DNA of 64,000 nucleotides from Planctomycetia bacterium. Its GTDB lineage: Bacteria > Planctomycetota > Planctomycetia > JALXBF01 > JBGPMX01. Of this stretch, positions 8,201-58,016 are shown piece by piece. How positions within the stretch are numbered: position 1 is the stretch's first letter; the number at the start of each line of letters is the position of its first letter. The position numbers were made by a program, and so were the translations under genes. The stretch spans positions 98,462-162,461 of the forward strand of contig DAIOWH010000001.1 in assembly GCA_036758585.1 (NCBI GenBank). Reading direction: 5' to 3'. The notes beneath the pieces are model-generated. The model was not told the origin of the DNA. It was given only the letters and a program-made list of their open reading frames with translations, and made no database searches.

Positions 8201-11200
8201 GACCTGTTTGGCGTCTTTCGGCTGCGCGACGCTTCGCACGTGAACACGTTTGGGTTCACTACGTCGTTCAACATCGCGGGCCGGGCCGATTTGGGGATCG
8301 AGTACTTCGTCGATCTCGCATCCGAGTCCGGCGGAGTGGCGAACCTGGTCGACGCCCGAACGTCGCGGGTGGTGCAAGCCGTTCCAATTCGTCTGTTTCC
8401 AGACAGCCGCACCGTGATCGTCGACATACCGCTCGCGGCGATGCCCGAAGTTTCGGGTGGCCGTGTGACCTTTGGCGCGATCGTCGGGTCGGCCACGGAG
8501 TTCACGGATCAACTGCCCGAGTTGCCGCGTGCGGCCCAGAGCGCCGAGTCGCTTCAACTGGATTTTGCGACCGGCCAGACGCCCGGCTGCCGCACCGGAT
8601 CGGATGGCATCTTCAACGACGGGACAACGTTCACACGCGGGTTCGGCACGTTCACGCTACAGGTGCCGACCAGCGACCAGTTGTCGGAGACGGTGGTTGG
8701 ATGTCTCCCGAGCGTCGTGCGTGTGCGGGCCACCGACTTGTTCGACAAGGTCAATAACATCGTCAGCACGTCGATCGTCGATCGCGGCGTGCGGGTCGAT
8801 CTGACGCCGCCGCGGATCTATCGCGTGATTCCACCCGACAACTCCCAGGGCCGCGACGGGCCGCGCATCCTTCAACTCAATTTCAGTGAAGATCTGAACG
8901 GCAATGGCATCCTGGACCCCGGCGAAGACACCAACGGCGACAATCTGCTGAACAGCGACGATCTCGACCGCAGCACGGCCGAGCGGTCATCGAGTTATGA
9001 ACTGTTCCGCGCCGACGAGCAACCGTTCGAATCCGACTCCAACGAGTTGCGGCAGATCACCTACAACTCGGTGACCGACAGCGTGTCGATCACTCTGGGC
9101 GAGGGTCTGGATTCGGGGCACTATACGTTCGTGGCGTTGAGCCTCGGCGGCATAACCGACGTGGCCGGCAATCGACTCGACGGCGAACCGAACCCCGGCG
9201 CCCGGCCAGGTCAAGCGAACGTCTTCCCCAGCGGCGACGACGTCGCGGGCGGCGACTTCACGACTACTCTGTTGATCAACCAGGGTCCGCCCATCGTCAC
9301 CGCCGCGGCGGGTTCGGCAGGCCCGATCGTTCGTGCTATCTATGATCTGAACAACGAAGACATCAACGGCGACGGCGCGTTCGACGCGGGCGAAGACGTC
9401 GACGGAGACGGCACGTTCGATTTGGGCGACGCGCCCGCGCCGCCGCGCGAAATCGTCGTCACCCTGGATCAGCCGGTGATGCCTTCCAGCGTTCCACTGG
9501 ACCTGAACGGCAACGGGCGATTGGACTGTGGGCCCGACGGCATTTGCGGCACCGGCGACAGTGTGGACCTGAACGGCGACGGCGTCTTCGGACCGGGCGA
9601 CGGCGAAGTCGACGCCGACGGTGATGGAGACATCGACTTCAACGCATTGGACGAAGATACGAAGACCGTGTTCCTGACGCGCACGCGCACGGTCGACCAG
9701 ATTACCGGTCTGGTGTCGAGCATCGGCGACGGCGTTTTCGATCCGTTCTCGAATCGCGTGCTCGGGTTCGTCGAGGTAACGAACGACGGGCACACGCTGA
9801 CCTTCCATCCCAACCCCGAGTTCCTCGATCCGGACAACGACGGCGTGCAAGAGGGCCTGTTGGCGGACCACTACCGCTTCAGCCTGATGGGCGGCGGCAT
9901 ACTGCAGCCCGAACCGTCGGGGTTGCGCGACAACATCATCGTCAGTTGCGATGACTTCCGCAACGATCAGTTGACGCGCCTGGTGCCGGACACGGTCGCT
10001 CCGTCCTTGGCGTGTCGCACCGACAACCGCGACAACGGCCAGGCGCCGACGCCGTTCGACCCGTCGGGCTTCCAGACCACGACCGCCACCGACCTGTTCG
10101 TGACGAACACGCTGAATTCGCAAGGACCCGGTAATGTGTTGCTCACCGCTGTCGAGGACCGTGGCCAGTTGTTCAACGTGTTCGACGACGAGATCGCAGT
10201 CTATGTATCGAAAGATTCGGGCACGAGTTGGGCGAAGACGCCGTTTTTTGCGACCGATGCGGCCCGTACGATAGCCACGCCGGCCAGCCCGACAACGACA
10301 AGCGTCACCTTCGATATTGCCGTCCACCCCAGCGTGGCGTTTGACGCGCTCGGTACGGCGTACGTCGGCTACGCGCTGTACGATCTACCGAACGTCCCCG
10401 ACTTTACGCTGACCGGCGCCGATACTCGCTTCGACGCCGCCGATCGCGACGCCCTCGACACGGGCGGCGCGGTCTGTCAAGACTGCGCCGAAGTGGTAGA
10501 CGTCTTGGCGACCGCCGACGCCGCGACCTACGCGTTTGAGATCGGTTTTTCGCAGACAGTCACTCCGCCGAGCGAGAACGCACTGCGCCCGCTTTTTGGC
10601 CGGTTGGACATCGACTGCGATCGCGACGGCGGCGCCGACTTCTTCGCCGATCTCGCCAGCGAGAACTTCGACCCGGCCGTTGAGTCGCGGTTTGTCAACC
10701 TGCTTGTGGCCGCCGGCGTTAGCCCCGCGTGCAATCCCAGCAACCTAGCGCCCGGTTCGCTCGTGTCGCCTTCGATTCCCATCGATTATCTGGGCGACCG
10801 GGTGCGGTTGCGAGTTGCGCGGGAACTGGTGGACATGGATCCGCCGGTGCTGGCGGACTTCCGAGTTTTGGTCTCGCAGAGTGCGGGCGGTCCGGTGTCG
10901 GACGCCGCGCCCAACGCGGGCTTTACGGCAGTGCGCGACCGGCGTTTTCGTTCCAGCGCGGTCGCGCTTAGTCGATCGGTGGATGTGGTCACGGCCCCTT
11001 CTGGGTCAGCGGTGTTTCAGTCGCCGATTCCGGCGTCCTTCCACTTCCACGAAGACCTTAACGACAACGGCGCGAACGATGCCGGCGACATAGACGTCGA
11101 CGGCGACGGTCAAATCACACAAATGACGTTCGTGGATCTTGACCCGTCCATTGCCGTGGACAAGACCCGCATATACTCGGACCGTGCGCGGACGCCTAAC

Positions 11201-31206: not shown

Positions 31207-31590
31207 TTGGAGGGTAGAAACTTGGCTAAGGAAACCAGTACAGCGGTCGAAGAACAACCAGCTCCTGCGGAACAGACCCAGCAGCCCGCTCGGGCCGTCC
31301 AAACCGAGGTGGTTGTAGACGAGGCCAGCGCCCACGCGGCCTATGCAAACTTCGCTCGGGTCACGGCGACCCCCGAAGAGGTGATCGTCGACTTCGCCCT
31401 GAACCCCCAGCCGTTCGCCACCGGTCGGCAAGAAGTCAAGGTCTCGCAGCGACTGATCATGAACTTCTACACCGCAAAGCGACTGTTGGGCGCGTTGCAG
31501 ATGACGATCCAACGCCACGAATCGGCGTTTGGCGCAATTGAGTTGGACGTACGGCGCCGGGCGAACATCCCAGCTACGGGCGCTCGCTAG
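31207..31590 (+). CDS. DUF3467-family small protein
   Basis: 127-aa ORF (TTG start in the track; the true start may be slightly downstream). YANFARVTATPEEVIVDFALNPQ...VSQRLIMNFYTAKRLLGALQ matches the DUF3467 pattern YSNLA.I.HS.SEFVLDF...R...TP.HAKRLL.AL recalled from Bacteroidetes/PVC proteins. Confidence 0.55.
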   Translation: MEGRNLAKETSTAVEEQPAPAEQTQQPARAVQTEVVVDEASAHAAYANFARVTATPEEVIVDFALNPQPFATGRQEVKVSQRLIMNFYTAKRLLGALQMTIQRHESAFGAIELDVRRRANIPATGAR

Positions 31591-31622: not shown

Positions 31623-31930
31623 GAAGTCAAAAATCCCGGCCGGACCTCGGCGGTAGCTGCCGCCGAGGGCCGGCTTGATTACGAGGTCGGTACAGAGAGG
31701 ATGCACGTGGGGAGCGACCGGAATCGCCGCGAGTCCTGCACATCTTGGGATTCTCGCTGGTTCTGTGAGGCACACACTCCGGGGGGGAGTGTGTGTGGAT
31801 AGTCGCTGTCGGTGGCTTTTGCTGTGGCCTTACGCTCCACCGTCCACTTGCACGCCGATGGAACCGAGGCATGAGCCGTCGCAGAGAGGGAGGCCACATT
31901 GTGGGCCAGGACGGCACTAAGTACTGCTCG

Positions 31931-32064
31931 ACATTGAAAGGGGTTCGTTTAACCCGCAGCCGCAGGCGAGGCACAACAAACGCCAGCCATGCCTCGCCTG
32001 CGGCTGCGGGTTAAACGACCGAAGCCGATTTCAGACCCCTATTCAATGCGACACAGTACTAAGC
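31931..32064. repeat. Palindromic intergenic repeat element, copy 1 (core stem TTTAACCCGCAGCCGCAGGCGAGG / CCTCGCCTGCGGCTGCGGGTTAAA, 20-nt loop, outer imperfect inverted repeats CATTGAAAGGGG.../...CCCCTATTCAATG)
   Basis: Stem arms at 31948-31971 and 31992-32015. About 85-90% identical over ~130 bp to copy 2 (44393-44554). The core stem is shared with copy 3 (57903-57984). Confidence 0.8.
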
Positions 32065-40093: not shown

Positions 40094-41662
40094 TTACTGG
40101 CCGAATCCGCCACCCGCAGCACCGGTGACTTGGAAACGACGCTCGCCGGCCAGTGAGTTGAACTGCGGAAACACGTTGAGGCGAACGTAACGTCGATCCG
40201 CGGAGATCACCGCCTGAGCGGTAAATCCGGCGCCGAAGAAGAAGGGCGTAATGGTCGGATTGAAAGCTACCGCCCCGCCGCCGACCGCCCCGCCGAATTG
40301 GAAGAGGTGCTGCGGCCCGCCGTAGGGGCCGGCTCGCCCGCCCGGATCGCCGGCCGACGTCCGATCGGACAGCCCCATCAGTTCTTGGATCGGCAGTCGG
40401 CCCGACGATGCGACGCCCACGCCTGGCGGAACGTATTGCGGAATCGCCAGCAGTCCGGTGCGTCGGCCGGTTTCGAGTTTCACTAACAGCGGCTTGGTCG
40501 CGCCGAGCGGAACGTAGAACGTGTCGTGCTTCTCGTCCGGCGAACCCTCGTGATACGTCACTTCAACCTTGACGCGGCCGCCGAGCGGACTGCCCCAAAC
40601 GCGGTCCACACGAATCTCGTAGTCACCGGGCAGCGCGCGGGCACAAACGTAAAGCTCAGCCGTGTTCTTGGCCGACCCCGCGTCCTTGCCGAAGCTGTCG
40701 CGGACCAGCACGCCGCCGGCGCCCGTAACTCGATTCTGTGCACAGCAGACCGTGCCGGGCGGCTCGACTACTCGCAGGTCGATGTCGGCGTCGCCCTGCC
40801 AGCCAATGCGCACGACCAGGTCGCGCGTGTCGGCCCGCCGAACCTGTTCGACCAGCGCATCAGCTTCGGATGTGCGGCCGGCGCGGCGCAGCTTGTTCTC
40901 GACGTCGGCGGCTTGGCTGCGGGCCTTCTTGTGCAGTTCGTCCTGCACGTTCACCCAACCGTGCGCGAGCAGGTGCGAAGCAGCCCACGCCACAGTGCGG
41001 CCATCGACAAGCTCGGCGGCCAGGTCCAGACTCTCCAGGTAGGGTTCCGGCGCGAGCGGCACTTTCTCGGAGGCCTCGCGATAGAGTCGAATCGCGGCCT
41101 CCTTTAGACCATGTCGCGCGAGTCGTCGAGCGACACGGTACTGGGCGTCGGGTGAGTCGGAGACGACATCGGCCGCGGAGAGCAGAGTTCGTTGGATCTC
41201 CTGCTTGTCGGCGCCGGTAGCCTCTTGAAGTAGCGCGAGCGACTCGTACATCCACGGCTCGTTGAAGCCGTGCCGAATGGCAGCCTTGAGCAGCGCGACG
41301 CCGTGATCGGGTTTCTTGGACTTGACCAGAACCTCAAGGGCGGCGCGAACGCCGGCCGAAGATTCCTTGTGTTGCGCAAAGTGCCGATCCCAGACAACCT
41401 CGGGGTCGAGGTCCGCCTTGGACGAACGGGCTGGGTTGGTCGGTGCGGCGTCCCTCGCCTGTTTCTGCCGGGCCTTCGGCTCATCGTCCTGGGAGCCGAG
41501 CCCGGCCGCTAAAAAGGGCTTACGTTTCTCAGGCCGTTCGCGCGACGCGATTGGTCCAGCACGCCGCCGATTTGCTCGTGGATTTCTGATGTCTGTCTGA
41601 TGACCAGGGCCGGGTTCCGACGCCAGTAACGGATCGAGCCTTCGCCACCGCGCACGTCCCAC
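40094..41662 (-). CDS. Hypothetical protein (helical repeat N-half, beta-rich C-half ending in a Gly-rich tail). 5' end uncertain
   Basis: 522-aa ORF. Its first ~51 codons overlap the 3' end of the upstream VWA gene (stop at 41509) in another frame, so the true start is probably an internal or alternative codon near 41500. No family recognised. Confidence 0.45.
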   Translation of the reverse strand: MGRARWRRLDPLLASEPGPGHQTDIRNPRANRRRAGPIASRERPEKRKPFLAAGLGSQDDEPKARQKQARDAAPTNPARSSKADLDPEVVWDRHFAQHKESSAGVRAALEVLVKSKKPDHGVALLKAAIRHGFNEPWMYESLALLQEATGADKQEIQRTLLSAADVVSDSPDAQYRVARRLARHGLKEAAIRLYREASEKVPLAPEPYLESLDLAAELVDGRTVAWAASHLLAHGWVNVQDELHKKARSQAADVENKLRRAGRTSEADALVEQVRRADTRDLVVRIGWQGDADIDLRVVEPPGTVCCAQNRVTGAGGVLVRDSFGKDAGSAKNTAELYVCARALPGDYEIRVDRVWGSPLGGRVKVEVTYHEGSPDEKHDTFYVPLGATKPLLVKLETGRRTGLLAIPQYVPPGVGVASSGRLPIQELMGLSDRTSAGDPGGRAGPYGGPQHLFQFGGAVGGGAVAFNPTITPFFFGAGFTAQAVISADRRYVRLNVFPQFNSLAGERRFQVTGAAGGGFGQ

Positions 41663-44259
41663 GTGTCCGGCGCGATCACTTCCTGAATCAGGTTGATCAG
41701 TTCATCGCTCAGGTCTTCGCCGGCGCCGCCACCACCGGCGCCGCCAGCACCGCCGCCACCGCCAGCGCCGCCGCCGCCCGGCCCGTTGCCGACGTTTCGC
41801 ATGCCGAAGCCGCCCATGCCGCCGCCCATGCCGCCACCCATCATGCCGCCACCGCCCGACTGAACGGGGATGACCAGATCGGCGACCGGGTAGACCTTGT
41901 GCACGAGCTCGTTTCCGGCGGAGAGCTGGCTGGTGATCTGGAGCACATCATCTTTGATCACGTAAGTGAGGTTCAGGCCGCCCAGCAGGAGCTTCAGAGC
42001 GCTCTTGAGAGCGATCTGCTCGACGTGGATCGTGACGGGCGTGTCGCTGGTGACGCCTTCCTCTTCGAGTGCCACGCGGTCGAGTACGATGTTGACGTCG
42101 GTGTAGTCGCGCAAGAAGTCGACCACGTCGCTCAGCGGCGTCTCGACGAATTCGAGCGTTACCGGATCCTTCAGCTTCGCGCTGATCTTCTCCTCAGCCT
42201 TGCTGGGCACGGTCAGATCGACGCGCGCCCACTTCGCTCGCCGCTTGCTCATCTCTTCCCACCACCGCGCGTCGGGGTATTCGATCGGCGGCTCGTCGGG
42301 GAACGGGATGTGCGACTTGTCGATCTGCAGCAGCGTGAGCAGCACGCGGTGCTTGCGGATCTCTTTGAGTTCGTTGAGGTCATGAGCGATCCCCTCCATC
42401 TCGGCGTGGAACGGTGCCAACATGGCCAGTGGCGTTTCGCGGTCCTTATCGCGCATGCGCCGCGCGACGGTCAGGGCCTCGCGATACGATTCCTCGGCCA
42501 TCAAGGCCCAGAACTGTTCCATCAGTTGATGAACTTCCTCGTTCTTCTGGTTCAGCAGGTTGTTCAGCCGTTTCATCTCGGCGCCTTGGGCGTTTCGCTG
42601 CTGTCGGGCGGCGTCCTCCATGTCGACCCGCTCTTTCTCGCGAGCGGCCTGGCGCAGGGCGCTCTCGACCTGGCGCCGCAGCGTGTCGCGGTGGGACTCG
42701 GGCGCGTCAGTCGCCGACTCGATACGGAGCAGCGTGTAGCCCTTGAGCAGATCGATGGCTCGCTGCGGTTCGCGTTGCATCAGACGCTTCGCCTCGGCCA
42801 TTTGAGCGTTGACTTCGGTGCGCAGTTGTTCAACCGCGGCCTTCTCGCGTTCTTTGAGTGTGGCGATGTCGGCGCGTGGTTGCGGCGTGCGCGGAGCTTG
42901 TGGCTGGGCACCGGCCGGTTCTTCGACCTCTGGTTTGGCATCGGCCGGCGCGGGCGGCTGGTTCCCGGCCGCGGGTGCGGGCGGAGGTGGCGGAGGCGGC
43001 TGCGCGCCGGGTTCCTGACCAGCCTGGGCCAGCAGAATCTCTTTCTTCTTGGTGGCCAGTCCGCGCAACAGCGTCTTTGCCTCGAGGTTCTTCGGATCGT
43101 GCTTGAGCACTTCGTTCAGGAACTTCTCGGCCTCTTGCACTTGGCCGCGTCGCGCTGCGATCTCGCCCAAGGACAACAGTGTATCGACGTCCTTCTCGTG
43201 ATCGCCCGCGGCGAGTTCCATGATGCTCTTCGCGTCGCTCGGCGCCGCGGCCGACGCCTCGGCCGACCACTTCGACCAGAGGTCAGGCAGGTAGGCGAGG
43301 TCCTCGCTTGATCGCCCCGCGCTCACCGTCCAGGCCCGAGAGACTGCCTCGCCCTGTACTTCACCGCTGACCGAGACCTGGATCGGTGCGTCGAACGTTC
43401 CGCGCACCAGGAACAGAGTCGCCTGATCGGCACGCAACGGCGGCGCGACTTGCGGCAGCACCGGCAGATCGTCGCCGGCCAGGTCCAGCCGTGTGCCGTA
43501 GCAGACCGGCGAACCGGCCGCTGCCACCAGGTTCGCAATCATGCCGGCGACGTCGTCCTTGTCGGCCGCGTTAAAGAATCGTCCGCCCGTTTCGGCGGCC
43601 AGTCGCTGAAGCACGGTCTCGTTGACGTCGCGCCCGACGGCCACCGTGTGCACCGCCACGCGCTGGTTGCGCAGCTCGCTGCTGATCGCGGCGATCTTGG
43701 CCGGCGAGAACAGGCCGGCCGTGTGCTGCCCGTCACCGACGTACACAATCGATCGCGCGCCGGAGTTGGCCTCGGTGAACAGTTCGGCAGCTTGACGCAG
43801 GCCCGCCTCGAGGTTGCTGGTGCCGAGCGGAGCGCGGCGGTTGAGTTTTGCGAGGCCCGTGCGAAGTCCGTCGGCGCCGGGCGCGGCAAATCCGCCGCTC
43901 AGGTTCTCGGTAGTTACGTCCATCGCCACGAGGGCGGCCCGGTCGCCATTCTTCAGTCCGCCCACGACTCCAGAAGCTACCTCGACGGCCCGATTCAGGA
44001 TCGCCCCAGTTTGGCTGGCCGAAGTGTCCACGAGCACGAGAAGGTCACGCCGGCCGGCGACCGGTCGACCGAAGTCCGCCTTGACGGACAAGGCCGCATA
44101 GGTCTGGCCGTCGGGAGCCTTGTAGGTGCTTACAGTCACCGCCGAGCCAGTTGCAGTTTCGCCGCCGTTCGCTGCGACAAGAGATGCCGCGCCCATGGCC
44201 AGCAAACCCAGAACGACGCCTCGACGCCAAATCGCCTTAGACATGATCGAACTCCCCAA
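41509..44259 (-). CDS. Secreted VWA-domain protein with TPR segment, Pro-rich linker, long coiled-coil and C-terminal STN/secretin-N-like domains (916 aa)
   Basis: Signal peptide MSKAIWRRGVVLGLLAMGAASLVAANG. VWA/MIDAS-like LLVLVDTSASQTG ... SIVYVGDGQHTAG. TPR-like LLSLGEIAARRGQVQEAEKFLNEVLKHDPKNLEAK. PPPPPPPAPAAG linker. E/R/Q-rich coiled coil. PVTLEFVETPLSDVVDFLRDYTDVNIVLD...LNLTYVIKDDVLQI (STN/N0-like). Gly/Met-rich spacer. ...NPALVIRQTSEIHEQIGGVLDQ (secretin-N1-like). Confidence 0.75.
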   Translation of the reverse strand: MGSSIMSKAIWRRGVVLGLLAMGAASLVAANGGETATGSAVTVSTYKAPDGQTYAALSVKADFGRPVAGRRDLLVLVDTSASQTGAILNRAVEVASGVVGGLKNGDRAALVAMDVTTENLSGGFAAPGADGLRTGLAKLNRRAPLGTSNLEAGLRQAAELFTEANSGARSIVYVGDGQHTAGLFSPAKIAAISSELRNQRVAVHTVAVGRDVNETVLQRLAAETGGRFFNAADKDDVAGMIANLVAAAGSPVCYGTRLDLAGDDLPVLPQVAPPLRADQATLFLVRGTFDAPIQVSVSGEVQGEAVSRAWTVSAGRSSEDLAYLPDLWSKWSAEASAAAPSDAKSIMELAAGDHEKDVDTLLSLGEIAARRGQVQEAEKFLNEVLKHDPKNLEAKTLLRGLATKKKEILLAQAGQEPGAQPPPPPPPAPAAGNQPPAPADAKPEVEEPAGAQPQAPRTPQPRADIATLKEREKAAVEQLRTEVNAQMAEAKRLMQREPQRAIDLLKGYTLLRIESATDAPESHRDTLRRQVESALRQAAREKERVDMEDAARQQRNAQGAEMKRLNNLLNQKNEEVHQLMEQFWALMAEESYREALTVARRMRDKDRETPLAMLAPFHAEMEGIAHDLNELKEIRKHRVLLTLLQIDKSHIPFPDEPPIEYPDARWWEEMSKRRAKWARVDLTVPSKAEEKISAKLKDPVTLEFVETPLSDVVDFLRDYTDVNIVLDRVALEEEGVTSDTPVTIHVEQIALKSALKLLLGGLNLTYVIKDDVLQITSQLSAGNELVHKVYPVADLVIPVQSGGGGMMGGGMGGGMGGFGMRNVGNGPGGGGAGGGGGAGGAGGGGAGEDLSDELINLIQEVIAPDTWDVRGGEGSIRYWRRNPALVIRQTSEIHEQIGGVLDQSRRANGLRNVSPF

Positions 44260-44392
44260 AAGTGACTCGCGAAACCGTCCAACCGGGGCAAATTGCCAAG
44301 TTTGTGAACCTATTGTAGCGGCGGCCTCAAGTAATCTTCCAGCACGAATTTCGGCTGCGGTCGCCGTCCGCCGTTAGATCGGGATTACTCCA

Positions 44393-44554
44393 CATTGAAA
44401 GAGGTTCGTTTAACCTCGTTTAACCCGCAGCCGCAGGCGAGGTGAGGCACAACAACGCCAGCCGTACCTCGCCTGCGGCTGCGGGTTAAACGACCGAGGC
44501 GGATTTCAGACCCTATTCAATGCGGCACAGTACTTAGCGGCACAGTACTTAGTC
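44393..44554. repeat. Palindromic intergenic repeat element, copy 2 (same orientation and loop as copy 1; carries small internal tandem duplications)
   Basis: Core stem arms at about 44419-44443 and 44468-44491. Duplicated cgtttaacc and gcggcacagtacttag units. Lies upstream of the VWA gene and downstream of the PP2C gene. Confidence 0.8.
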
Positions 44555-44733: not shown

Positions 44734-47174
44734 CTAGTCGACGCGCCCGACTTCGTTGACTTCCTCGGGTTCGAGGGCACGAAGGACCAGGAGAGTGAAG
44801 TCGTCGAACTGCTGGCTAGTGGCACAGTATTCTTGGACGCTCTGCTGAATGCGGGCGGCAAGTTCTGCGGCGGGTTGGGCGTGATGCTCGCGGACCAGGT
44901 GTTCGAGCCGCGCGCGACCAAACGGTTCGCCAGCCGGGTTCATCGCATCGAGCGCCCCATCGGAGAACGCAACCATGACGTCGCCGGGGACCAGCGTAAT
45001 CTCGTCCTGCTCGATTGGGTTTTCCGGTTCCACGCCAAGCGGCCGGCCACGTGTGTCGAGCGCAGCGAGTACGCCGGTCGACGACCGATACAGGATAGCC
45101 GCCGGGTGGCCCGCCGAAGCGAACTGCAGCCGACCGCTCGGCACGGTCAACACGGCGCAGAACATCGTCGTGAATGCGGCTTCGAGCGACTGGACCTGAA
45201 ACAGCGTGTGGTTGGTCCGCCGCAACACCACGCCGGGCGACGGGCTATCCTGCAGGTGGCTCAGCGCGAGCGAACGGGCCTCGTTCACCAGGAACGCCGC
45301 AGGCAGCCCCTTGCCGCACGCGTCGCCGATGAGCAAGCCCCAGCGAATGTCCGACAGGGCGTGCCAATCGTAAAAGTCGCCGCCGACCTCGCGTGCCGGC
45401 ATGCACAACCCCGCCAGGTCAAACCCCGTTATCTGTGGCGCTGCGGCCGGTAAGATGCGTCGCTGCAAACTGGCGGCCAGTTCCTCTCGTAGGTCAGCCG
45501 TTCCTTTTCGGCCGTAGTCCGTTCGAGCGCGGCGATCGATCGCCGCAACTGCCGCGACATCTCGTTGAACGTCGCCGCCAACTCGCCGATCTCGTCGTGG
45601 CCGTGTACGACCGCTTCGATCTCGACATCCAGCCGGCCGGCCTGCCGAACGGTGCGAGTCAACTCGCTGATCGGCTGTTCCACCGTGCGAGCCAAGTAGC
45701 CGCCGATCATGAGCGCGGCGAACAGCGCCAGCGTCGTGATCACCGCCGTCGGATTGCGGCGCTCCGCGAGCGCCTCTTTCACGCCGTACACTTGCGGAAT
45801 CATCAGCCCCAACTTCCAGCCGGTGGGCCGCAATGTCCGCCAATGGCGCAGCAGCGTGGCGCCGTCCACAACCTCCATCGCGTCGCCGTCGTCCTCGGTG
45901 GGTTCGACGACGCCAAACCGATCGGTCTGCAGCAGCGTCTGACCGTCCGAACCAAACAGGGCGTACTCGTAGCGCTGCCGCGAGGCCGACGCAAAGACGT
46001 ACTGCTCCAACTCGTCGAGCACGATCGAGTCGATCACCACGGTGCCCGCCTGGGCGCCGCCGGGCACGAGTCGCATCAGGTTGATCGCTCGACGCCGCTC
46101 AGGCGGTGGGCCGGGGCCAGTCTGAACGGCGGTCTTGCCCGTGGTCATCGTCTGCATCACCGCGTTGTCAATGCGGTGCGACTCCTGAATCTCCGCGAGC
46201 TGAGCCGTTTGCATCGTCGGCGCCAGGCTGGTCATGATCGGCGAGAGGGGAAGATGGCCGGGCGACAACGACTCTGGCGATGGCGACGCAGCCAGATTGG
46301 CGACGTACCGCGCCACAGCCGATTCATGCGTGGCCAGCACTTGCCGCAGGTCACGATCGATCTGCTCTGCCAACTCCGACTGAACGGTGCGAACCCTCAG
46401 GCGAGCCTGGCGATAGTCGTCCCACAAGTGCACCGCGACGACCAACAGCAGCGGCAAGAACCCGGCAGCCGACAACCCCAACAGGATCTTGACGATGATC
46501 GGCTGATGGCGAAACCGACGCATCGACGGCTCCCGTCCCGCCGCCGACTGCCACCAGCCGCGACAGAACAGACTGGATCGAGTGATCACCGGCGACAGCG
46601 TGCGCAACAGGGGCAAGCCCAACACCAAACACGGACCCGCACCGGCCGCAAACCACGCCACGACGTGAGCGAGCCAGCGGCTCGGCCGCCAGTTGTCGAC
46701 GTCTGCTAGCGCGAGCGAAGTCGTCCCGATCGCCGCGGCGATCAGGTTGCCGAGGCCGACGACAACCACAAGGTAAACCAGCCGGTCGCGTCGCAGGCGC
46801 AATCGAGGATCGCGCCGAGAATAACGGAACCAAAACGCAGGCAACCCGCTTAGCACGAGGTCCGCCAGCACGCGCCCGGGTAGGTTGTCGGGTCCCGTCA
46901 GCGATCGCACAATGGCGGGAAAGATAACGCCCGCAACGACGCCCCATGCGCCGAACCATATCCCCGCGACCACCTGAATCGCGACCGCCGGCGTGAACCC
47001 GCTGGGCGTTTCGTGAACCGGGAAGCTCAGCGTACCCAGGCCGCCGACCACCGTGCCGACGGCGATCGTTCCAGCCAACGCGAAGATGTGCCGTGACCCC
47101 ACACTCAGCGTCGTGTCGGGCGGTACATCCCACACGCTTCCGCGCGACTTGTTCAATTCGTTGGTGACGGCCAA
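44734..47174 (-). pseudogene. Membrane sensor-HAMP-PP2C (SpoIIE/RsbU-like) serine phosphatase, split by a single frameshift into 581-aa and 369-aa ORFs (genuine pseudogene or 1-nt sequence error)
   Basis: The upstream ORF (45429-47174) has multiple TM helices and a HAMP-like IGELAATFNEMSRQLRRSIAALERTTAEKERL. The downstream ORF (44734-45843) has a PP2C core (GDFYDW...LLIGDACGKG...FSDGALDA...DDFTLLV). Its first ~110 codons are Arg-rich out-of-frame read-through. The canonical post-HAMP motif LREELAASLQRRILP appears only in the second frame. Junction at about 45485-45515. Confidence 0.6.
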
Positions 47175-49790: not shown

Positions 49791-52700
49791 CTACTGCGTC
49801 TCGACCGTCACGGCCATCACGACGGGGGCCGTGGCGTCGGGGCCCTTCACCAACTCGATCCGTTCGATCGTGTCGGTGCGCTTCGGTTGAACGGCGAGGT
49901 AGCGAATCTGCTGGCCGCGCAGGCGGAACGCGAGCTTCGACTGCGGCACATCGACGACGCGAATGTAGTCGGCGAAGTGGACGCCGTTCTTCAGTTCGTG
50001 GTCTTCGGTCGCGCCGTCGGCGTAGTGCAAGCGCACGATCATCGACACGGTCTCGTCGCGATTGAACGGGAACGCCCAGCCGCCCACGCCCGAGAGCAAG
50101 TGAATCGCTCGCGCCGGCGCGTTGCACGGCAGCGTCACCGACCTGGGCATCTTGGGGGGCAGCGCGCCCTGTGGACCGTTGAGCAGAACGGCGTTCTTCA
50201 CGCGGTCGCCCTGCGGATCGACCAGCACGAACGGCACGCCCTCGACCGTCTTTGGCGACCAGTCGCGGAAGATGAGTCGCTCGACGTCGGAGTCTTCGTT
50301 GATGAACATGCCGCGCGTGCTGACGACCGTGGCGACCTTGGCGAGGTCGAGCGGCAGATACTTGCCGCGGGCGGCGAGAAACTCCAGCAGGTTCACGAGT
50401 TCCTCGCGAGTGATCTGTTTCTCGAACCCCTCGGGCATGAGCGATTTCGGCGATTCGAGCAACTCCTCGACGTCCTCGCGCAGTACGATCTGCTTCTTGC
50501 CCTCGGGGTCGAACAGTTCGAGCGCGGTCTTTGTTTCCGAGGCCAAGAGGCCGGTGAGCACGCGGCCGTCTTTGGTGGCAACCAGGTACGCGCGGTAGTT
50601 GCCCTCGACCGAGCGGCTGGGGTCGAGGATGTTCGTTAGGAGTTCGATCTTCGGGTGTACGGCCATGCCGGTGAGGTCCGGGCCGACTTTCGACCCTTCG
50701 CCCGAATGCGTGTGGCACTTGGCACAATGTTTGGTGAACGCCGCCTTGCCCGCGGCCACGTCGCCTGTTTCCTTCGTGATCGGCTCGAACTCCTCCATCA
50801 CCTTCTGCCGGTCCGGGTTCGGCAGGCGTCCCTTGCGCGCGAGCACCGTCTTCGCCCGCTCCGCGATCGCCTTGTTGGGATGCCCGGCCAGCGTCGTCGC
50901 CTGGTCCGACGCCAGATCGGTCGAATCGACCTTGCCCGCTTCAATCGCATCGAGCAGCGCCTTCGACCACGCCGGCCGCTTCACGAGTGCCGCCAGGGCC
51001 GCCCGTCGCGTCGCGGGAGTCAGCGACGGCCAGCGCTCGAGGATCGCCGCGCCGACTTCGTCCGAGCCGCTTTCGCCGAGCGCTTCGATGATGCCGCCGG
51101 ACAGCGCGGGACTCGCCGCGGGCGTGACGAGATCGAGCAGCGATTTCATCGACTCATCGTCGCTACCGACGGCAACCAGTTGCCGCGCGGCGGCAACACG
51201 CGACTCGTCTGCGAGTTTTGTATCGCCGATCCGCGTCAGCATCGTCTTTCTGATTCCAGCCGCCGACGCCTCGAACTTGCCGCGAATTCCCATCCGACCG
51301 GCAAGCTTCGCGAGCGCGAGTTGTCCCTGAGGTGATAGCTTGCCGACCATCGCGTCTAGCGCGTCATTGGCGTCCTCGTCAAGTTTCGACCTGTGCTCCG
51401 ATGACCAACCGGCAGCGAGTCCAGCGACTGCCGCATCGGCAACGATCGGAACTTCCGAAGCGCTCAGTGAACGAATCACGACGCCGATATCCTCGTCATC
51501 AGGTTTGCGACGTGCGAAGTTTTCGGCAACGGTGCGTACGGCGTCGGTGACTCGTTTCGTTGACGCTACATCCGACTTCAAATTCAGCGCAGCCGCGGAA
51601 AGAAATCCCACGTCACTCTTGGCGCCCGCAACAATGGCGGCCAATGGGATCCACGGATCAGAAGCACTCTGTGGTTCCGAAAGGAACCTCGCGGCGTTCT
51701 CACCTGAAACCGTGGACGGTTCTGAATTCGCGCTGAACAGGAGCATTGCCAATCGCTCCTTCGGATGACCAGCCACGTAACGGTCCCGCTGCGGCGGTAA
51801 AAGTATGCCGTTGAGTCGCGGTGTCTCGGCGAGGCCCTCCTCAGTCTGATGGGCGTGAAGTGCCGAGAGTTCAATCGCTGTCGGAAGCCCATCGGCCTTT
51901 CGACCCACCTTGTCTCTCACGTAGCTCATCAGAGTCTCGTGGAGCTGCGGCGCCAGTTCTTTCCGCTTGCTTTCGACGAGCAACCGTTGCGCAGTCAGGC
52001 GCACCCACATGTTCTTGTCCGAAAAGGCGGCAAGAAGTTGCTCCGGCGTCGCGCGGTCGAGTCGAATGGGCGGCTGGGGTCGAGTCTTCGAGCCCCCAGC
52101 CTTTTCGTTAGCGTAGTGCAGGCGGCCCGCCTGCAATGTCGTCAAAGGAAACCGCAGGCGATCCGCCTGCACTACGACTTCCTTGGGAGTCGCTTTGTCG
52201 CCCGCAGCCTGGGTGCTCGAAGAATCGACCCCAGCCACCCCAACGCTGGACGATTTCTCCGCGTCGTGCACGACGCGATAAATCCGCCCGTGCGTTTGGT
52301 CGCGGAGTGGAGTTTCGTAGGCGTTGCCGCGGCCGGTCTTGAAGCCGGCGGGCGTGGGGTTGTGCTGAATGATGTAGTTGTACCAGTCGAGGATCCAGAC
52401 GGCGCCGTCCGGACCGACCTTGGCATCGACCGGGCCGAACCACGGGTCGGTCGAGGCCACGAGGTTCCAGCCGTCGCGGGCGATGAAGCCGGAACCGTTC
52501 GGCACGAGCCAGTCGATGTGCACCAGCCGCGCGGTCGGCTCGCAGACGAACACGGCGCGGTTCCAATATTCCGGCGGGAAGCTGCGGGCTGTGTACACCT
52601 CGCAGCCGGCCGCGGCCGTGAACCCGCCGTGCCAGTCCATCTGACGGAAGTCGCCGACGATCGGGTGTACCTTATTGTGGTCCTGGATTCCGGCGCTGCC

Positions 52701-54500
52701 GACGCCGTGCCAGCCGCGGACCATCTCGAAGTAGCGGTTCGGGATCGCCATGTGGACGAGATGCTGGTTGTTCGCCGTCGAGCAGAACACGTCGCCGGTC
52801 TCGCTGAAGCCGAGGCCCCAGGTGTTGTTCGAGGTGGGGGTGATGACCTCGAAGGCGGTGACGCGGGGGAGAGATTGCTGATTGCTAATTGCTGATTGCT
52901 GATTGCCAGATTTCGTCACTTGCGTCTCTTCCGTCCTTCTTGTCCCGGAAGAAACCTCGGTCGACCCACCGTTTAGTTTGAAGCGAAAGATGCACTGGCG
53001 GAACGAAATCTCTTCCTCCCTCTCCCCGTCTGCGGGGAGAGGGTTGGGGTGAGGGGTAGTCGGCACGTTGTTCGAGTTCACTAGTTTTTTTGCTTGCTCC
53101 CCAGACCCCTCACCCCGGCCCTCTCCCCGCAGACGGGGAGAGGGAGCAGTCGTGACGGCGGAGGCCGGCCGCGTCACTTTCACTTTGCCGCCGGAGTAGC
53201 CGCACACGCCCCAAATCCAGTTGTCGAGGCCGTAGCGCAGGTTCGAGGTGACGGCGTGCGTGTCGCCGCGGCCGAAGCCGGTGAGGATGATCTCGCGCAC
53301 GTCGGCCCGGTCGTCGCCGTCGGTGTCCTTGAGGAACAGGAGGTGCGGGGCGCACGCGACCACGACTCCGCCGTGCGTGTTCACGATCGCGGTCGGGATG
53401 TTCAGCTTGTCGGCGAACACGGTGAACTTGTCGGCGCGGCCGTCTTGGTTGGTGTCTTCGCAAATCTTGATCTGGTCGTTGCCGTTTTGGTGCGGGTCGT
53501 CGAGCAGCTTGTTCGGGTAGTCGACGCTCTCGATGATCCAGAGACGTCCGCGTTCGTCCCATGAACCGGCCATCGGCTTCTTGATGTCCGGTTCGGCGGC
53601 GAACAGTTCCGCGCGGAACCCTTCCGGCATGTGCATATGTTTGATGGATAGTTCGGGCGGCAGCGGCTTGGCGATCTTGTTCAGGTTCTCGCCCTGTGTG
53701 CCCCACTTCTGGCCGGGGGTGTAGTGAGGAATCGGCGCGCCGGCGTCGACGTATTCGAGTGGCGGCAGGTCGTCGGTCAGGCGGCCGGTCGCCCAGCGGA
53801 TGCCATTCTCGACGAGCTTGTGAAACTGCGGTTGCCCGAAAGTTTTTTCATCGTGGCCGAGCGCAGTGTAGAAGACGCGGCCTTTGCCTTGCTGACGTAC
53901 CCAGCAACTCGGCTCATAGCCGCCCGCCTCGTCGCGTACCATCACCGCCTGAATGTCGGCGGCGACATCGGAGTGCGTGTAATCCTCGTCTGTGACCTCG
54001 AATCCGCTGAGTCCGCGCACGGCGGGATGCTGTGCGTCGATGATCCGAGTTTGGAACTTGCGGAACCCGTGCTTCGAGAACCGGCCGCCGACAAGAGACA
54101 CATACCTTGTGCTCGATCCGAAACATGCGGACGCACAGTGCAACGGGACGAATCCCTTGCCGCCCTCGACGAACTCAACCAGCGCCGCTTCCTGCTCGGC
54201 CGACATTGTGGTGTGATTGGCGTACACGACCAGTCCGTCGTATTCGCCGAGCGTCTTTGCGTTCAAGTCGGCGACGCGATCGGTGTAAGTCAGCTTGATG
54301 CCGCGCTCGGCCAGCACAGGCTCGATCTGCTTGAACCGGGCGGCCGGCCGGTGGTGGCCGTTGTCGCCAAGGAATAGGATGCGGATCGGCGTCTGCTCGC
54401 CGGGGTCCTCGGCGCCCGACCAGGCCAACGTCGCACCGCCCAAGAGCAATAGTGTCGTGACAGTAACGGCACGGCTGAGATTACGCATGGATCTCTCCAC
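49791..54500 (-). CDS. PVC-type fusion protein: ThuA-like (class-I glutamine-amidotransferase-like) domain + putative membrane-bound dehydrogenase beta-propeller + HEAT repeats + CxxCH cytochrome c domain (1569 aa)
   Basis: Signal peptide MRNLSRAVTVTTLLLLGGATLAWS. ILFLGDNGHH...ALGHDEKTF (ThuA-like). Propeller segments (WIIESVDYPN.., WILDWYNYIIQHNPTP..). Long HEAT/ARM-like helical region. CAKCHTHSG heme-binding motif at about 50711-50725 followed by LMPEGFE. This architecture is characteristic of Planctomycetes/Verrucomicrobia. Confidence 0.85.
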   Translation of the reverse strand: MERSMRNLSRAVTVTTLLLLGGATLAWSGAEDPGEQTPIRILFLGDNGHHRPAARFKQIEPVLAERGIKLTYTDRVADLNAKTLGEYDGLVVYANHTTMSAEQEAALVEFVEGGKGFVPLHCASACFGSSTRYVSLVGGRFSKHGFRKFQTRIIDAQHPAVRGLSGFEVTDEDYTHSDVAADIQAVMVRDEAGGYEPSCWVRQQGKGRVFYTALGHDEKTFGQPQFHKLVENGIRWATGRLTDDLPPLEYVDAGAPIPHYTPGQKWGTQGENLNKIAKPLPPELSIKHMHMPEGFRAELFAAEPDIKKPMAGSWDERGRLWIIESVDYPNKLLDDPHQNGNDQIKICEDTNQDGRADKFTVFADKLNIPTAIVNTHGGVVVACAPHLLFLKDTDGDDRADVREIILTGFGRGDTHAVTSNLRYGLDNWIWGVCGYSGGKVKVTRPASAVTTAPSPRLRGEGRGEGSGEQAKKLVNSNNVPTTPHPNPLPADGEREEEISFRQCIFRFKLNGGSTEVSSGTRRTEETQVTKSGNQQSAISNQQSLPRVTAFEVITPTSNNTWGLGFSETGDVFCSTANNQHLVHMAIPNRYFEMVRGWHGVGSAGIQDHNKVHPIVGDFRQMDWHGGFTAAAGCEVYTARSFPPEYWNRAVFVCEPTARLVHIDWLVPNGSGFIARDGWNLVASTDPWFGPVDAKVGPDGAVWILDWYNYIIQHNPTPAGFKTGRGNAYETPLRDQTHGRIYRVVHDAEKSSSVGVAGVDSSSTQAAGDKATPKEVVVQADRLRFPLTTLQAGRLHYANEKAGGSKTRPQPPIRLDRATPEQLLAAFSDKNMWVRLTAQRLLVESKRKELAPQLHETLMSYVRDKVGRKADGLPTAIELSALHAHQTEEGLAETPRLNGILLPPQRDRYVAGHPKERLAMLLFSANSEPSTVSGENAARFLSEPQSASDPWIPLAAIVAGAKSDVGFLSAAALNLKSDVASTKRVTDAVRTVAENFARRKPDDEDIGVVIRSLSASEVPIVADAAVAGLAAGWSSEHRSKLDEDANDALDAMVGKLSPQGQLALAKLAGRMGIRGKFEASAAGIRKTMLTRIGDTKLADESRVAAARQLVAVGSDDESMKSLLDLVTPAASPALSGGIIEALGESGSDEVGAAILERWPSLTPATRRAALAALVKRPAWSKALLDAIEAGKVDSTDLASDQATTLAGHPNKAIAERAKTVLARKGRLPNPDRQKVMEEFEPITKETGDVAAGKAAFTKHCAKCHTHSGEGSKVGPDLTGMAVHPKIELLTNILDPSRSVEGNYRAYLVATKDGRVLTGLLASETKTALELFDPEGKKQIVLREDVEELLESPKSLMPEGFEKQITREELVNLLEFLAARGKYLPLDLAKVATVVSTRGMFINEDSDVERLIFRDWSPKTVEGVPFVLVDPQGDRVKNAVLLNGPQGALPPKMPRSVTLPCNAPARAIHLLSGVGGWAFPFNRDETVSMIVRLHYADGATEDHELKNGVHFADYIRVVDVPQSKLAFRLRGQQIRYLAVQPKRTDTIERIELVKGPDATAPVVMAVTVETQ
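52874..52908. repeat. Tandem heptamer repeat (ATTGCTG-like x5) inside the PVC dehydrogenase coding sequence
   Basis: attgctg attgcta attgctg attgctg attgcca read directly. It encodes the low-complexity NQQSAISNQQS stretch on the minus strand. Local GC is far below the gene average. Confidence 0.75.
53019..53144. mobile_element. MITE-like insertion inside a coding sequence: near-perfect 39-bp inverted repeat (CCTCTCCCCGTCTGCGGGGAGAGGGTTGGGGTGAGGGGT ... ACCCCTCACCCCGGCCCTCTCCCCGCAGACGGGGAGAGG) flanking a 47-bp AT-rich core, kept in frame
   Basis: The arms at 53019-53058 and 53106-53144 match at 37 of 39 positions as reverse complements, and each arm also contains its own short hairpin. The core (agtcggcacgttgttcgagttcactagtttttttgcttgctcc) is AT-rich relative to the gene. 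Together with the heptamer repeat it adds about 95 low-complexity residues (..RGEGRGEGSGEQ..PHPNPLPADGEREEE..) between propeller segments. Confidence 0.55.
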
Positions 54501-56661: not shown

Positions 56662-57777
56662 TCACTGCAGAGTGAACTCCGGCAGGCGCACGATTTCGCC
56701 GCCCTTCAGAGCCGACTGGTGGGCGCAGATGCCCACGCACGTCCAGTTTGCCGACTGCACGGCGTTCGGCCATGGGTCGCGGTTGCCGACCAGGGCGCTG
56801 ACGAACTCGTTCACCAAGTGCGGGTGCGATCCGCCGTGACCGCCGCCCTGAATGAACGACAGGTGGTCGGCGTCTTGAATGGTCCGCGTGAACTGCCGAA
56901 TCGGCTCGGGCAGCAGGTGTGCGTAGTCGGGCGACTGGACCTTCGACGGAATCTCCGGCTCCGGCTTCTTGGCTGTGTGAATGATGTGCGGCTCATGCTC
57001 GACCAGCGTCCACTCGAAACTCTTCTTGGTGCCGTACACGTCGAAGCTCTCGCGGTACTGACGGGCCGTATCGTACAGGAACCGCCAGATGTGACAGGCG
57101 ATGTCCGAGTCCTTGATCTTGATGTGGCAACTCTCGACAGCGAACTTGTTGCCCGACTTTTTCTGGATGTCCTCGCGCACCGTGCCCGACCCGAAACAAC
57201 TGACGTATTCGGCCCGGCCGTTCACCAGGCCCAGGCACGGACTGACGACATGCGTCGCGTAGTGCATCGGGATCATCCGCTCCCAGTACGCCGGCCAGCC
57301 GTCCATGTCTTGCGGGTGCGATGCGGCCATGTGCTGAATCTTGCCCAGCTCGCCCTTGGTGTACATTTCTTTGACGAACAGGAACTCGCGGCTGTACACG
57401 ACGGTCTCGGCCATCATGTACTTGAGGCCGGTCTTTTTGACGAGGTCGCAAATCTCTTTGCACTCTTCGACGGTCGTGGCCATCGGCACGGTACACATCA
57501 CGTGCTTGCCGGCTTTGAGCGCCGCGGCGGACATCGGTGCGTGGTCGGGGATCGGCGAGTTGATGTGTACGAAGTCGACGCTGGGATCCTTCAGCACGTC
57601 GTCGTAGTTGGTGTAGCGTTTTTCAATGCCGAAGTGATCGCCGACCTTGTTCATCTTGTCGGCCGATCGCTGGCAGATCGCGTACATGTTCGCGTTGGGG
57701 TGTTTCTGATAGATGGGGATAAACTCGGCCCCGAACCCAAGCCCGACGATTGCGACGTTGACTTTCTTGTTGCTCAT
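56662..57777 (-). CDS. Gfo/Idh/MocA-family NAD(P)-dependent oxidoreductase
   Basis: N-terminal Rossmann VNVAIVGLGFGAEFIP and family-typical EKP-like region. 371 aa. Spot counts of 60-nt windows give about 52-56% GC versus about 67% in the giant genes. Confidence 0.85.
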   Translation of the reverse strand: MSNKKVNVAIVGLGFGAEFIPIYQKHPNANMYAICQRSADKMNKVGDHFGIEKRYTNYDDVLKDPSVDFVHINSPIPDHAPMSAAALKAGKHVMCTVPMATTVEECKEICDLVKKTGLKYMMAETVVYSREFLFVKEMYTKGELGKIQHMAASHPQDMDGWPAYWERMIPMHYATHVVSPCLGLVNGRAEYVSCFGSGTVREDIQKKSGNKFAVESCHIKIKDSDIACHIWRFLYDTARQYRESFDVYGTKKSFEWTLVEHEPHIIHTAKKPEPEIPSKVQSPDYAHLLPEPIRQFTRTIQDADHLSFIQGGGHGGSHPHLVNEFVSALVGNRDPWPNAVQSANWTCVGICAHQSALKGGEIVRLPEFTLQ

Positions 57778-57891
57778 GTTTGCGAATCTCCAAGTGATCT
57801 GGTGAGCCAGCCCATCGGCGGCCCGACAGTATACAAGCGAGCGACCGGCTCAGCGAGTGTGCAGGGCGCAAAGGGTGTATTTCCGTAGCTG

Positions 57892-57998
57892 CGCTTCGCT
57901 CGTTTAACCCGCAGCCGCAGGCGAGGTCGTGTTTGATCCGTGCAATTCGCACGATGCCGACCTCGCCTGCGGCTGTGGGTTAAGCGAGCGCCGAATGC
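57892..57998. repeat. Palindromic intergenic repeat element, copy 3 (same 24-bp core stem, different loop and extended outer stem GCTTCGCTCG/CGAGCGCCGAA)
   Basis: Core arms 57903-57926 and 57961-57984 (one mismatch: ggctgTgggttaa). The loop contains its own small hairpin cgtgc-aattc-gcacg. Located in the divergent intergenic region between the oxidoreductase and the fragmented surface-protein gene. Confidence 0.75.
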
Positions 57999-58016
57999 AA
58001 TTACGGGTATACACCC

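Follow-up and report, generated by a model that had tools for sequence, protein, structure and literature searches.

Repetitive extragenic palindromic (REP) sequences, and the bacterial interspersed mosaic elements (BIMEs) and REP doublets forming hairpins (REPINs) built from them, occur together with genes for REP-associated tyrosine transposases (RAYTs), as in the REP-BIME system of Escherichia coli (PDB 4ER8) and the REPINs of Pseudomonas fluorescens. The E. coli enzyme, TnpA-REP, cleaves and rejoins REPs (as cited in PMC6006769). In planctomycetes, GTAG-20/21 REP families with RAYT-like genes have been described for Rhodopirellula baltica (PMC3733652), and class 3 TnpA-Y1 genes are accompanied by atypical hairpins having a CnGA foot (PMC6006769). 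Here we describe three palindromes, copies 1 to 3, in a 64,000-nt stretch of the genome of a Planctomycetia bacterium (assembly GCA_036758585.1, contig DAIOWH010000001.1, positions 98,462 to 162,461; this whole stretch is referred to as the window). It is probable (about 0.8) that they are inverted doublets of the REPIN/BIME kind, formed by a REP-type repeat that has an associated RAYT in related Planctomycetota.

Similar to the REP/BIME/REPIN systems, the repeats described below are short and mostly extragenic; they occur as singlets, as inverted doublets forming long hairpins and as clusters beside a Y1 HUH gene (the REPtron arrangement), and each RAYT has a repeat sequence particular to it, which diverges along with it. 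In locus L128, different arm subtypes were also combined in one doublet, resembling the Y/Z REPs of BIMEs. Unlike these systems, 1) GT[AG]G is replaced by a 10-nt foot, TCGTTTAACC, which takes part in the base pairing of the doublet, 2) the arms are 26–29 nt long, with a weak palindrome within each arm in the window subtype, and the loops vary from 6 to more than 130 nt, and 3) the RAYT, a protein of 206 aa, has an N-terminal GFWLPNDPRGSW segment that is strongly conserved, and its NCBIfam score does not reach the equivalog cut-off. The GTAG-20/21 and class 3 TnpA-Y1 systems resemble the present one in phylum, in having Y1 genes flanked by dispersed hairpins and in some intragenic copies, but their GTAG and CnGA feet differ from TCGTTTAACC; furthermore, the proteins differ in their motifs, which are Y----Q and NHVH in class 3 but EHVH and Y---NP, the signature of class 2 (here YVEENP), in the 206-aa family. 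No repeat with a GTTTAAC foot in Planctomycetes was found in the text or supplements of PMC3733652 and PMC6006769, no description of a family with the TCGTTTAACC foot was found in the literature or supplements examined, and a literature search on the sequence GTTTAACCCG returned unrelated primers only. The kind of element, a REP/REPIN with its RAYT, is already known; this sequence family is new to it, with a protein of which many members are already called RayT in the automatic annotation of JGI.

The three palindromes and their repeat family

The 24-nt arm TTTAACCCGCAGCCGCAGGCGAGG had six matches in the window, arranged as three convergent pairs, whereas the number expected in shuffled sequence was 0 (100 shuffles). 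Five matches were exact, at 31948–31971 (+) and 31992–32015 (−) in copy 1, 44419–44442 (+) and 44467–44490 (−) in copy 2, and 57903–57926 (+) in copy 3, and the sixth, at 57961–57984 (−) in copy 3, had two mismatches; these are the places where an initial annotation, made from the sequence without database searches, had put a recurring palindrome. A repeat finder delimited the stems at 31945–32018 for copy 1 (29 nt, 100% complementary, with a loop of 16 nt), 44416–44493 for copy 2 (33 nt, 94% complementary) and 57897–57990 for copy 3 (33 nt, 94% complementary). With the foot included, the REP arms of copy 1 occupied 31944–31971 (+; TCGTTTAACC foot plus stem part) and 31992–32019 (−), the right arm being the exact reverse complement of the left; those of copy 2 occupied 44416–44442 (+), following a duplicated foot at 44406–44415, and 44467–44493 (−); and those of copy 3 occupied 57899–57926 (+) and 57961–57988 (−), the latter carrying the two mismatches (CGCTTAACCCACAG...).

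Palindromy reached well past the conserved arms, the whole elements being 144–167 nt long. Copy 1 is an extended palindrome at 31917–32063, consisting of a REPIN-like doublet and outer inverted repeats and bounded by the direct repeat CTAAG at 31917–31921 and 32059–32063; the element of copy 2 (44386–44552) belongs to the subfamily of copy 1 and has a decayed left end; and that of copy 3 (57873–58016) has the core doublet within an unrelated, longer imperfect palindrome. Folding as single-stranded DNA gave −59.9 kcal/mol (z −14.2) for copy 1 (145 nt), −48.6 kcal/mol (z −9.6) for copy 2 and −59.8 kcal/mol (z −11.6) for copy 3. When copies 1 and 2 were aligned, 130 bases matched (94.9% over ungapped columns), and the similarity took in the loop as well as the outer inverted repeats; the two are one subfamily, in agreement with the common unit of about 130 bp noticed earlier. 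The small tandem duplications that had been reported within copy 2 could be located as 1) a 10-nt tandem of TCGTTTAACC at 44406–44425, 2) a 5-nt insertion in the loop-proximal part of the stem, and 3) a 15-nt unit present twice at 44522–44551. Copy 3, likewise as described before, has the arms alone in common with the other two, its loop and longer outer arms being unrelated. No match to the outer arms or loops of the window copies was found outside the genome of the window in a search of all fetched loci.

An exact 21-mer scan, with one genome per species, gave at least 41 loci in at least 17 species-level assemblies (metagenome-assembled genomes, MAGs); of the assemblies among the matches listed, 16 were labelled Planctomycetota, Pirellulales or Pirellulaceae and one was labelled Spirochaetia. 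The conserved unit consists of the TCGTTTAACC foot and a stem part of about 17 nt, which in the window reads CGCAGCCGCAGGCGAGG. It is about 26–28 nt long with a sharp outer edge when all matches are read in register: in 244 distinct arms, T was present at −2 in 85% and C at −1 in 76%, followed by GTTTAACC, with no conservation further out. Units were found as inverted doublets, whose loops are unrelated in sequence and vary in length from 6 nt to over 130 nt, as singlets (L024 and L003), and as head-to-tail direct arrays, for example the + + + − units next to the RAYT gene in L066. Loops and flanks were common within a genome and not between genomes. The location was mostly extragenic, the median longest stop-free frame over an element being 438 nt versus 1173 nt for random segments (p 1.4e-9), and stop-free frames of 900 nt or longer covered 19% of the elements versus 69% of random segments of the same loci.

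Several individual loci were also recorded. In L024, the singlet arm (4187–4212) begins 8 nt past the 3′ end of a tRNA-Gln gene (4107–4178). The lone arm in L003 (1721–1746), TGTTTAACCCGCAGCCGCAGGCGAGG (25/26), has no partner and lies on a 5.6-Mb chromosome of about 60% GC labelled Spirochaetia (OY764216.1); horizontal transfer, mislabelling or chance are possible explanations. In the MAG Prado166 (L018, L027, L037, L040 and other loci), the arm is part of longer repeats having several hundred nt of common flank, with a partial unit, (CCCGCAGCCGCAGGCGAGGACGGCCCTGG)n, arrayed head to tail after it. In several assemblies, contigs from short reads end inside or beside arms (L123:1, the ends of L131 and L132, and the ends of L128–L130), and the contigs of the window's genome in ENA and Logan assemblies stop in or just past the arms at copies 1 and 3. 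Such breaks are as expected of a multi-copy repeat, which is thus a practical cause of fragmentation in short-read assemblies of these MAGs.

The RAYT-like gene flanked by the repeat

Clustering of the open reading frames (ORFs) near the elements identified a 206-aa gene with a hairpin on each side in two genomes, at L019:5912–6529 (Planctomycetota BJ22) and L011:318–935 (Pirellulales STL-PLA34). The two proteins are homologous, and both had REP_Tyr_transpos (NF047646) as the best NCBIfam match (E 2e-9 to 4e-9). A search for relatives of the 206-aa protein gave 4040 matches at E ≤ 1e-5, the top ones all being about 206 aa long, and 1507 representatives at 50% clustering. The catalytic residue Y173 (YVEENP) was invariant in both alignments (A3 and A5), in homologues with identities as low as 33%; H103-V-H105, forming the HUH motif, was invariant in 15 close homologues (A3) and at least 90% conserved in the wider set (A5). 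The N-terminal GFWLPNDPRGSW segment was strongly conserved. When 67 diverse members were examined, 66 matched the RAYT model NF047646 (best 7.9e-19) and 40 matched an IS200 model, and a search of solved structures with the family profile gave E. coli TnpA-REP (4er8) as the top PDB entry (E 2.9e-7), ahead of IS200-like transposases. An AlphaFold model built from the 67-sequence alignment had a pLDDT of 88.6 and a pTM of 0.82, and was used in place of an earlier, poor model from 15 close homologues (pLDDT 50.7). Foldseek comparison of this predicted structure (AF2 model) with the PDB returned only Y1 HUH transposases among the top 30 (ISDra2, IS608, IS200 and TnpA-REP), with 4er8 having the best query-normalised TM-score (0.48; rmsd 3.7 Å). 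Judging from the best family matches, the motifs and the predicted fold, the flanked gene probably encodes a RAYT-like Y1 HUH transposase. The clustering of repeat units on both sides of this gene in related Planctomycetota is a REPtron arrangement.

An independent test set was assembled from 80 further metagenomic loci chosen by protein relatedness and not by the repeat, giving 82 RAYT loci in all. In many of the 80 loci, hairpins of this kind adjoined the gene directly. Up to 500 nt from the RAYT gene, the foot GTTTAACC had a density of 2.44 per kb, as opposed to 0.13 per kb farther away in the same loci, a 19-fold difference. RAYTs of 73–100% identity had the window stem type alongside with 0–2 mismatches, those of 60–67% identity had 3–5 stem mismatches, and more distant ones had other stems, the distance to the window stem growing as RAYT identity dropped (Spearman rho −0.53, p 5e-4). 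The foot GTTTAACC remained constant while the stem part varied with RAYT divergence; the foot variants GTTTAGCC and GATTAGCC were seen with RAYTs at about 53–56% identity. Within a genome the same stem was found in both arms, for example CGTAGCCGTAGGCGAGG in L042, CGGAGCCAACGGCGACGG in L055 and CGTGGCCGCAGGCCAGG in L064.

Covariation analysis, proposed with the initial annotation, revealed that the arms stay complementary while changing: among 82 distinct doublets, both sides changed in 23 of the 27 stem pairs, with a covariation score of 0.463 versus 0.124 for shuffles (0/500) and at most 0.094 for slid controls. Arms would also be identical if a single sequence were recognised, and not only if pairing were selected for. 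In sister subtypes, a small hairpin inside each arm was kept by compensatory flips (GGGC/GCCC, TGCC/TCCC), as in GCGTGGGCATCGCCCCGC versus GCGTGCCCATCGGGCCGC and in ATGCC-aac-GGCAT versus ATCCC-aac-GGGAT.

By homology with E. coli TnpA-REP and the IS200/IS605 transposases, the hairpin would be bound, while the DNA is single-stranded, by a RAYT encoded elsewhere in the genome, which would read the conserved foot and would cut and rejoin the DNA there, and the repeat would thereby be copied or moved to new, mostly intergenic sites. Doublets may arise through inverted duplication of an arm with its flank, the resulting palindrome then moving as a unit; palindromic outer arms that are specific to a locus, such as those of copy 3 as opposed to copies 1 and 2, would follow from such duplication. 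IS200/IS605 elements and their derivatives, the palindrome-associated transposable elements (PATEs), are similar in the HUH/Y1 fold, in hairpin recognition and in having no regular target-site duplication, as was the case at the core doublets; they differ in having distinct left and right ends, whereas here the gene has the same symmetric doublets on either side and dispersed repeats occur apart from it.

The empty site at copy 1 and alternative explanations

In a close relative, L134 (JGI 3300037479), the DUF3467 protein encoded upstream of copy 1 is 98% identical to that of the window, the flanks are 97.1% (upstream) and about 95% (downstream) identical, and the order giant gene, DUF3467 gene, S8 gene is kept. 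Between the anchors GGACGGCA and GCTTCAGG, L134 has TTAC where the window has 146 nt (31917–32062), a net difference of 142 nt. Relatives at 93–94% protein identity also keep the synteny and have no arm in the DUF3467–S8 spacer. Since both the close and the more distant relatives are without the element, its absence is likely ancestral and copy 1 an insertion; the empty site in a 97%-identical relative indicates that the element is or was mobile. A similar comparison was made for copy 3, for which GFO/IDH/MocA orthologues (87–89% identity) have no element upstream, but as the synteny upstream is not conserved, they do not provide a clean empty site. Among the natures suggested in the initial annotation, that of a REP/MITE-like dispersed repeat (MITE, a miniature transposable element with inverted repeats) is supported, the repeat being present in many Planctomycetota genomes, adjoining a RAYT-type HUH/Y1 gene and missing at the orthologous position in a 97%-identical relative.

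Several observations weigh against a REP doublet moved by a RAYT. As for the enzyme, the NCBIfam scores of 36–38 bits are below the equivalog cut-off of 80 bits and the Pfam Y1_Tnp match is weak (19–20 versus a cut-off of 23), such scores under curated cut-offs pointing to a distant subfamily; no RAYT gene was detected in the window by tblastn, and a search for a RAYT of the window's own genome found none, P0251 belonging to sibling ENA samples. As for the repeat, three copies are visible in 64 kb, and the canonical REP foot GT[AG]G (or CGTC) is absent, the foot being TCGTTTAACC. The single-arm hairpin of the window subtype is GCC-gca-GGC, with 3 bp, and is no better than shuffles (z ~0), so that structure in this subtype lies mainly at the doublet level; in addition, only doublets with 20 or more complementary positions out of 27 entered the covariation analysis, so that the percentage paired is inflated. 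As for the insertion, the difference between the filled and the empty site is the whole 142–147 nt extended palindrome and not the 74-nt core, and copy 1 is flanked by a perfect (5/5) direct repeat, CTAAG. A direct repeat is not expected from HUH/Y1 transposition.

This pentamer keeps in play a second explanation, in our judgement quite unlikely, namely that copies 1 and 2 share a conventional MITE of 142–147 nt, which a DDE transposase would move, with (CTAAG)TACTGCTCGACATTGAA... as its terminal inverted repeats and with a target-site duplication, the REP doublet being merely central in it. The CTAAG repeat encloses TACTG...CAGTA at copy 1, the filled/empty difference spans the extended palindrome as a whole, and the outer arms are common to copies 1 and 2 and were found in no other fetched locus. 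MITEs such as Correia/NEMIS also measure about 150 nt, have terminal inverted repeats, lie between genes and show presence/absence polymorphism, and the possible 5-nt direct repeat of copy 1 is a further resemblance. However, the empty allele of L134 reads TTACG, and not CTAAG, at this position, a difference at two of five positions beside flanks of 97% identity. In copy 2, CAGTA is likewise followed by CT(A/T)AG, and CTAAGTACTG/CAGTACTAAG form a 9/10 inverted repeat incorporating the CTAAG bases of copy 1, so that the pentamer may be part of the element itself; reverse complementation of CAGTACTTAG, the right end of copy 2, gives exactly the left end of copy 1. In the search for target-site duplications proposed with the initial annotation, a direct repeat was seen at copy 1 (CTAAG, 5/5), and none at copy 2, which had no matching flanks, or at the core doublets in other genomes. 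It is possible that the pentamer is a target duplication, a part of the element, or a target or cleavage pentamer of the IS200/IS605 type; IS608 inserts 3′ of TTAC. Also unlike Correia/NEMIS, the conserved part is central instead of terminal, and no DDE transposase was present among the genes scanned around the three copies or among the recurring neighbour genes scanned in other loci. The gene between the arms encodes an HUH enzyme, and in copy 3 the outer arms that enclose the same core are unrelated.

A third explanation is that the hairpins are primarily RNA or DNA signals (terminators, mRNA stabilisers, small RNAs or an operator) kept by selection instead of being spread by a transposase. 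The gene context was derived from Pfam matches and from gene calls on the identical public contig. Copy 1 lies between two co-directional genes, the DUF3467 gene at 31207–31590 (+), which is called with a shorter start than the TTG start (P0424), and a large S8 peptidase gene starting at about 32155 (+). Copy 2 also lies between co-directional genes, on the minus strand, with the 3′ end of a HAMP/SpoIIE phosphatase gene (44734–47174) on one side and the 5′ end of a VWA/TPR/STN gene (41509–44259) on the other. Only copy 3 lies between divergent genes, GFO/IDH/MocA at 56662–57777 (−) and a gene called at about 58143–59129 (+). The initial annotation had regarded all copies as promoter-proximal and intergenic; all three are intergenic and copy 3 is in a divergent setting, but with copies 1 and 2 between co-directional genes the position relative to promoters is not common to all. 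For the decayed gene that had been said to abut copy 3 no evidence was found, the overlapping ORFs there resembling artefacts of high GC content.

We consider the signal explanation very unlikely. In its favour, copies 1 and 2 are between co-directional genes, the stems are very stable, and roles of E. coli REPs include effects on mRNA stability and termination (PMC3733652). On the other hand, a terminator scan found no U/T tail at any copy, and a search of Rfam 15 at gathering score returned tRNA-Arg alone for the whole window, with sub-threshold generic miRNA-precursor hairpin models only around the copies, so that the small RNA suggested earlier received no support. The same was true of the suggested protein-binding operator, as an arm spacing that ranges from 6 to more than 130 nt among copies is a poor fit to a fixed site; a consensus scan found no sigma-70-like promoter site coinciding with any copy. 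The divergent setting of copy 3, the freedom of loop length and sequence, the empty site in a 97%-identical relative with the same genes, and the in-frame read-through of some copies inside genes also argue against a signal, which would in addition leave the tight link to the RAYT gene unexplained.

The core sites of integron attC follow the consensus RYYYAAC/GTTRRRY. That the hairpins are attC-like sites, each a single attC without integrase, is hardly credible and was rejected because of their structure, their spacing and the kind of gene that they flank: folded hairpin sites with a variable centre and GTTTAAC...GTTAAAC boxes at the base of every hairpin fit this short, degenerate consensus, but the stems are fully paired with no bulges, unpaired central spacer or extrahelical bases, the symmetric arms would lose the strand choice typical of attC, the copies are 12–13 kb apart among giant genes with no integrase or cassette arrays seen, and the gene between the arms encodes an HUH/Y1 transposase and not a tyrosine recombinase, so that the fit is probably a coincidence.

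Copies in coding sequence and significance of the family

Hairpins of the window subtype were also observed in frame in L066, at 1016–1175, 2054–2195, 2840–2951 and 8386–8468, on a contig whose RAYT is 80% identical to P0001. Their hosts are a 1334-aa EF-hand/hydrolase/PSCyt1/PSCyt2/PSD1 gene and a sulfatase gene, in which the hairpins lie between Pfam domains and translate as SFNPQPQAR...(EPQPQAR)n...GLN linkers; the 1334-aa gene holds three of them, with lengths of 162, 144 and 114 nt, each a multiple of 3. Within the window, a gene at 49791–54500 (−), encoding a 1569-aa ThuA/DUF7133/cytochrome-c protein, has two palindromes of a different family inside, at 53016–53146 and 52068–52240, one with 42-nt arms (CTCCCTCTCCCCGTCTGCGGGGAGAGGGTTGGGGTGAGGGGT), each arm being a hairpin itself, and the other with 35-nt arms. 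A 47%-identical homologue in L127 is without exactly these segments (aa ~444–497 and ~745–808), and the palindromes therefore look like REP-like doublets inserted in frame.

Two further features of the window were recorded. In the phosphatase gene next to copy 2 (44734–47174, −), the HAMP part (ORF 45429–47174) and the SpoIIE/PP2C part (ORF 44734–45843) are overlapping ORFs in different frames; they look like one phosphatase gene, and this could be due to a frameshift, a sequencing error or two genes. The region 2273–31005 contains two giant genes (5934 and 3634 aa) full of Asp/Asn/Gly-rich repeats with a period of 36 nt (GAAGACnTnAACGGCGACGG...), which dominate the direct-repeat list of the window and look like calcium-binding repeats.

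A bolder form of the proposal, which we regard as rather doubtful, is that these elements represent a distinct REP class across Planctomycetota, with the 10-nt foot TCGTTTAACC, a 206-aa RAYT having an N-terminal WLPNDPRGSW module outside the current RAYT/TnpA-Y1 classifications, copies that move as whole palindromes, and copies repeatedly kept as in-frame inter-domain linkers (SFNPQPQAR...GLN) in large planctomycete proteins. If this were true, a common logic of recognising folded single-stranded DNA could be the reason why the foot is identical to the R-box consensus of attC.

As inverted doublets of a REP-type repeat, the conspicuous palindromes would be ordinary genome parasites or commensals rather than regulatory signals. 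The foot TCGTTTAACC, together with its co-varying stem and the 206-aa RAYT, provides a testable pair in a phylum whose REP biology is barely described, and the filled/empty pair at copy 1 and the in-frame copies in multi-domain genes offer a usable system for studying the movement of such repeats and their tolerance in coding sequence.

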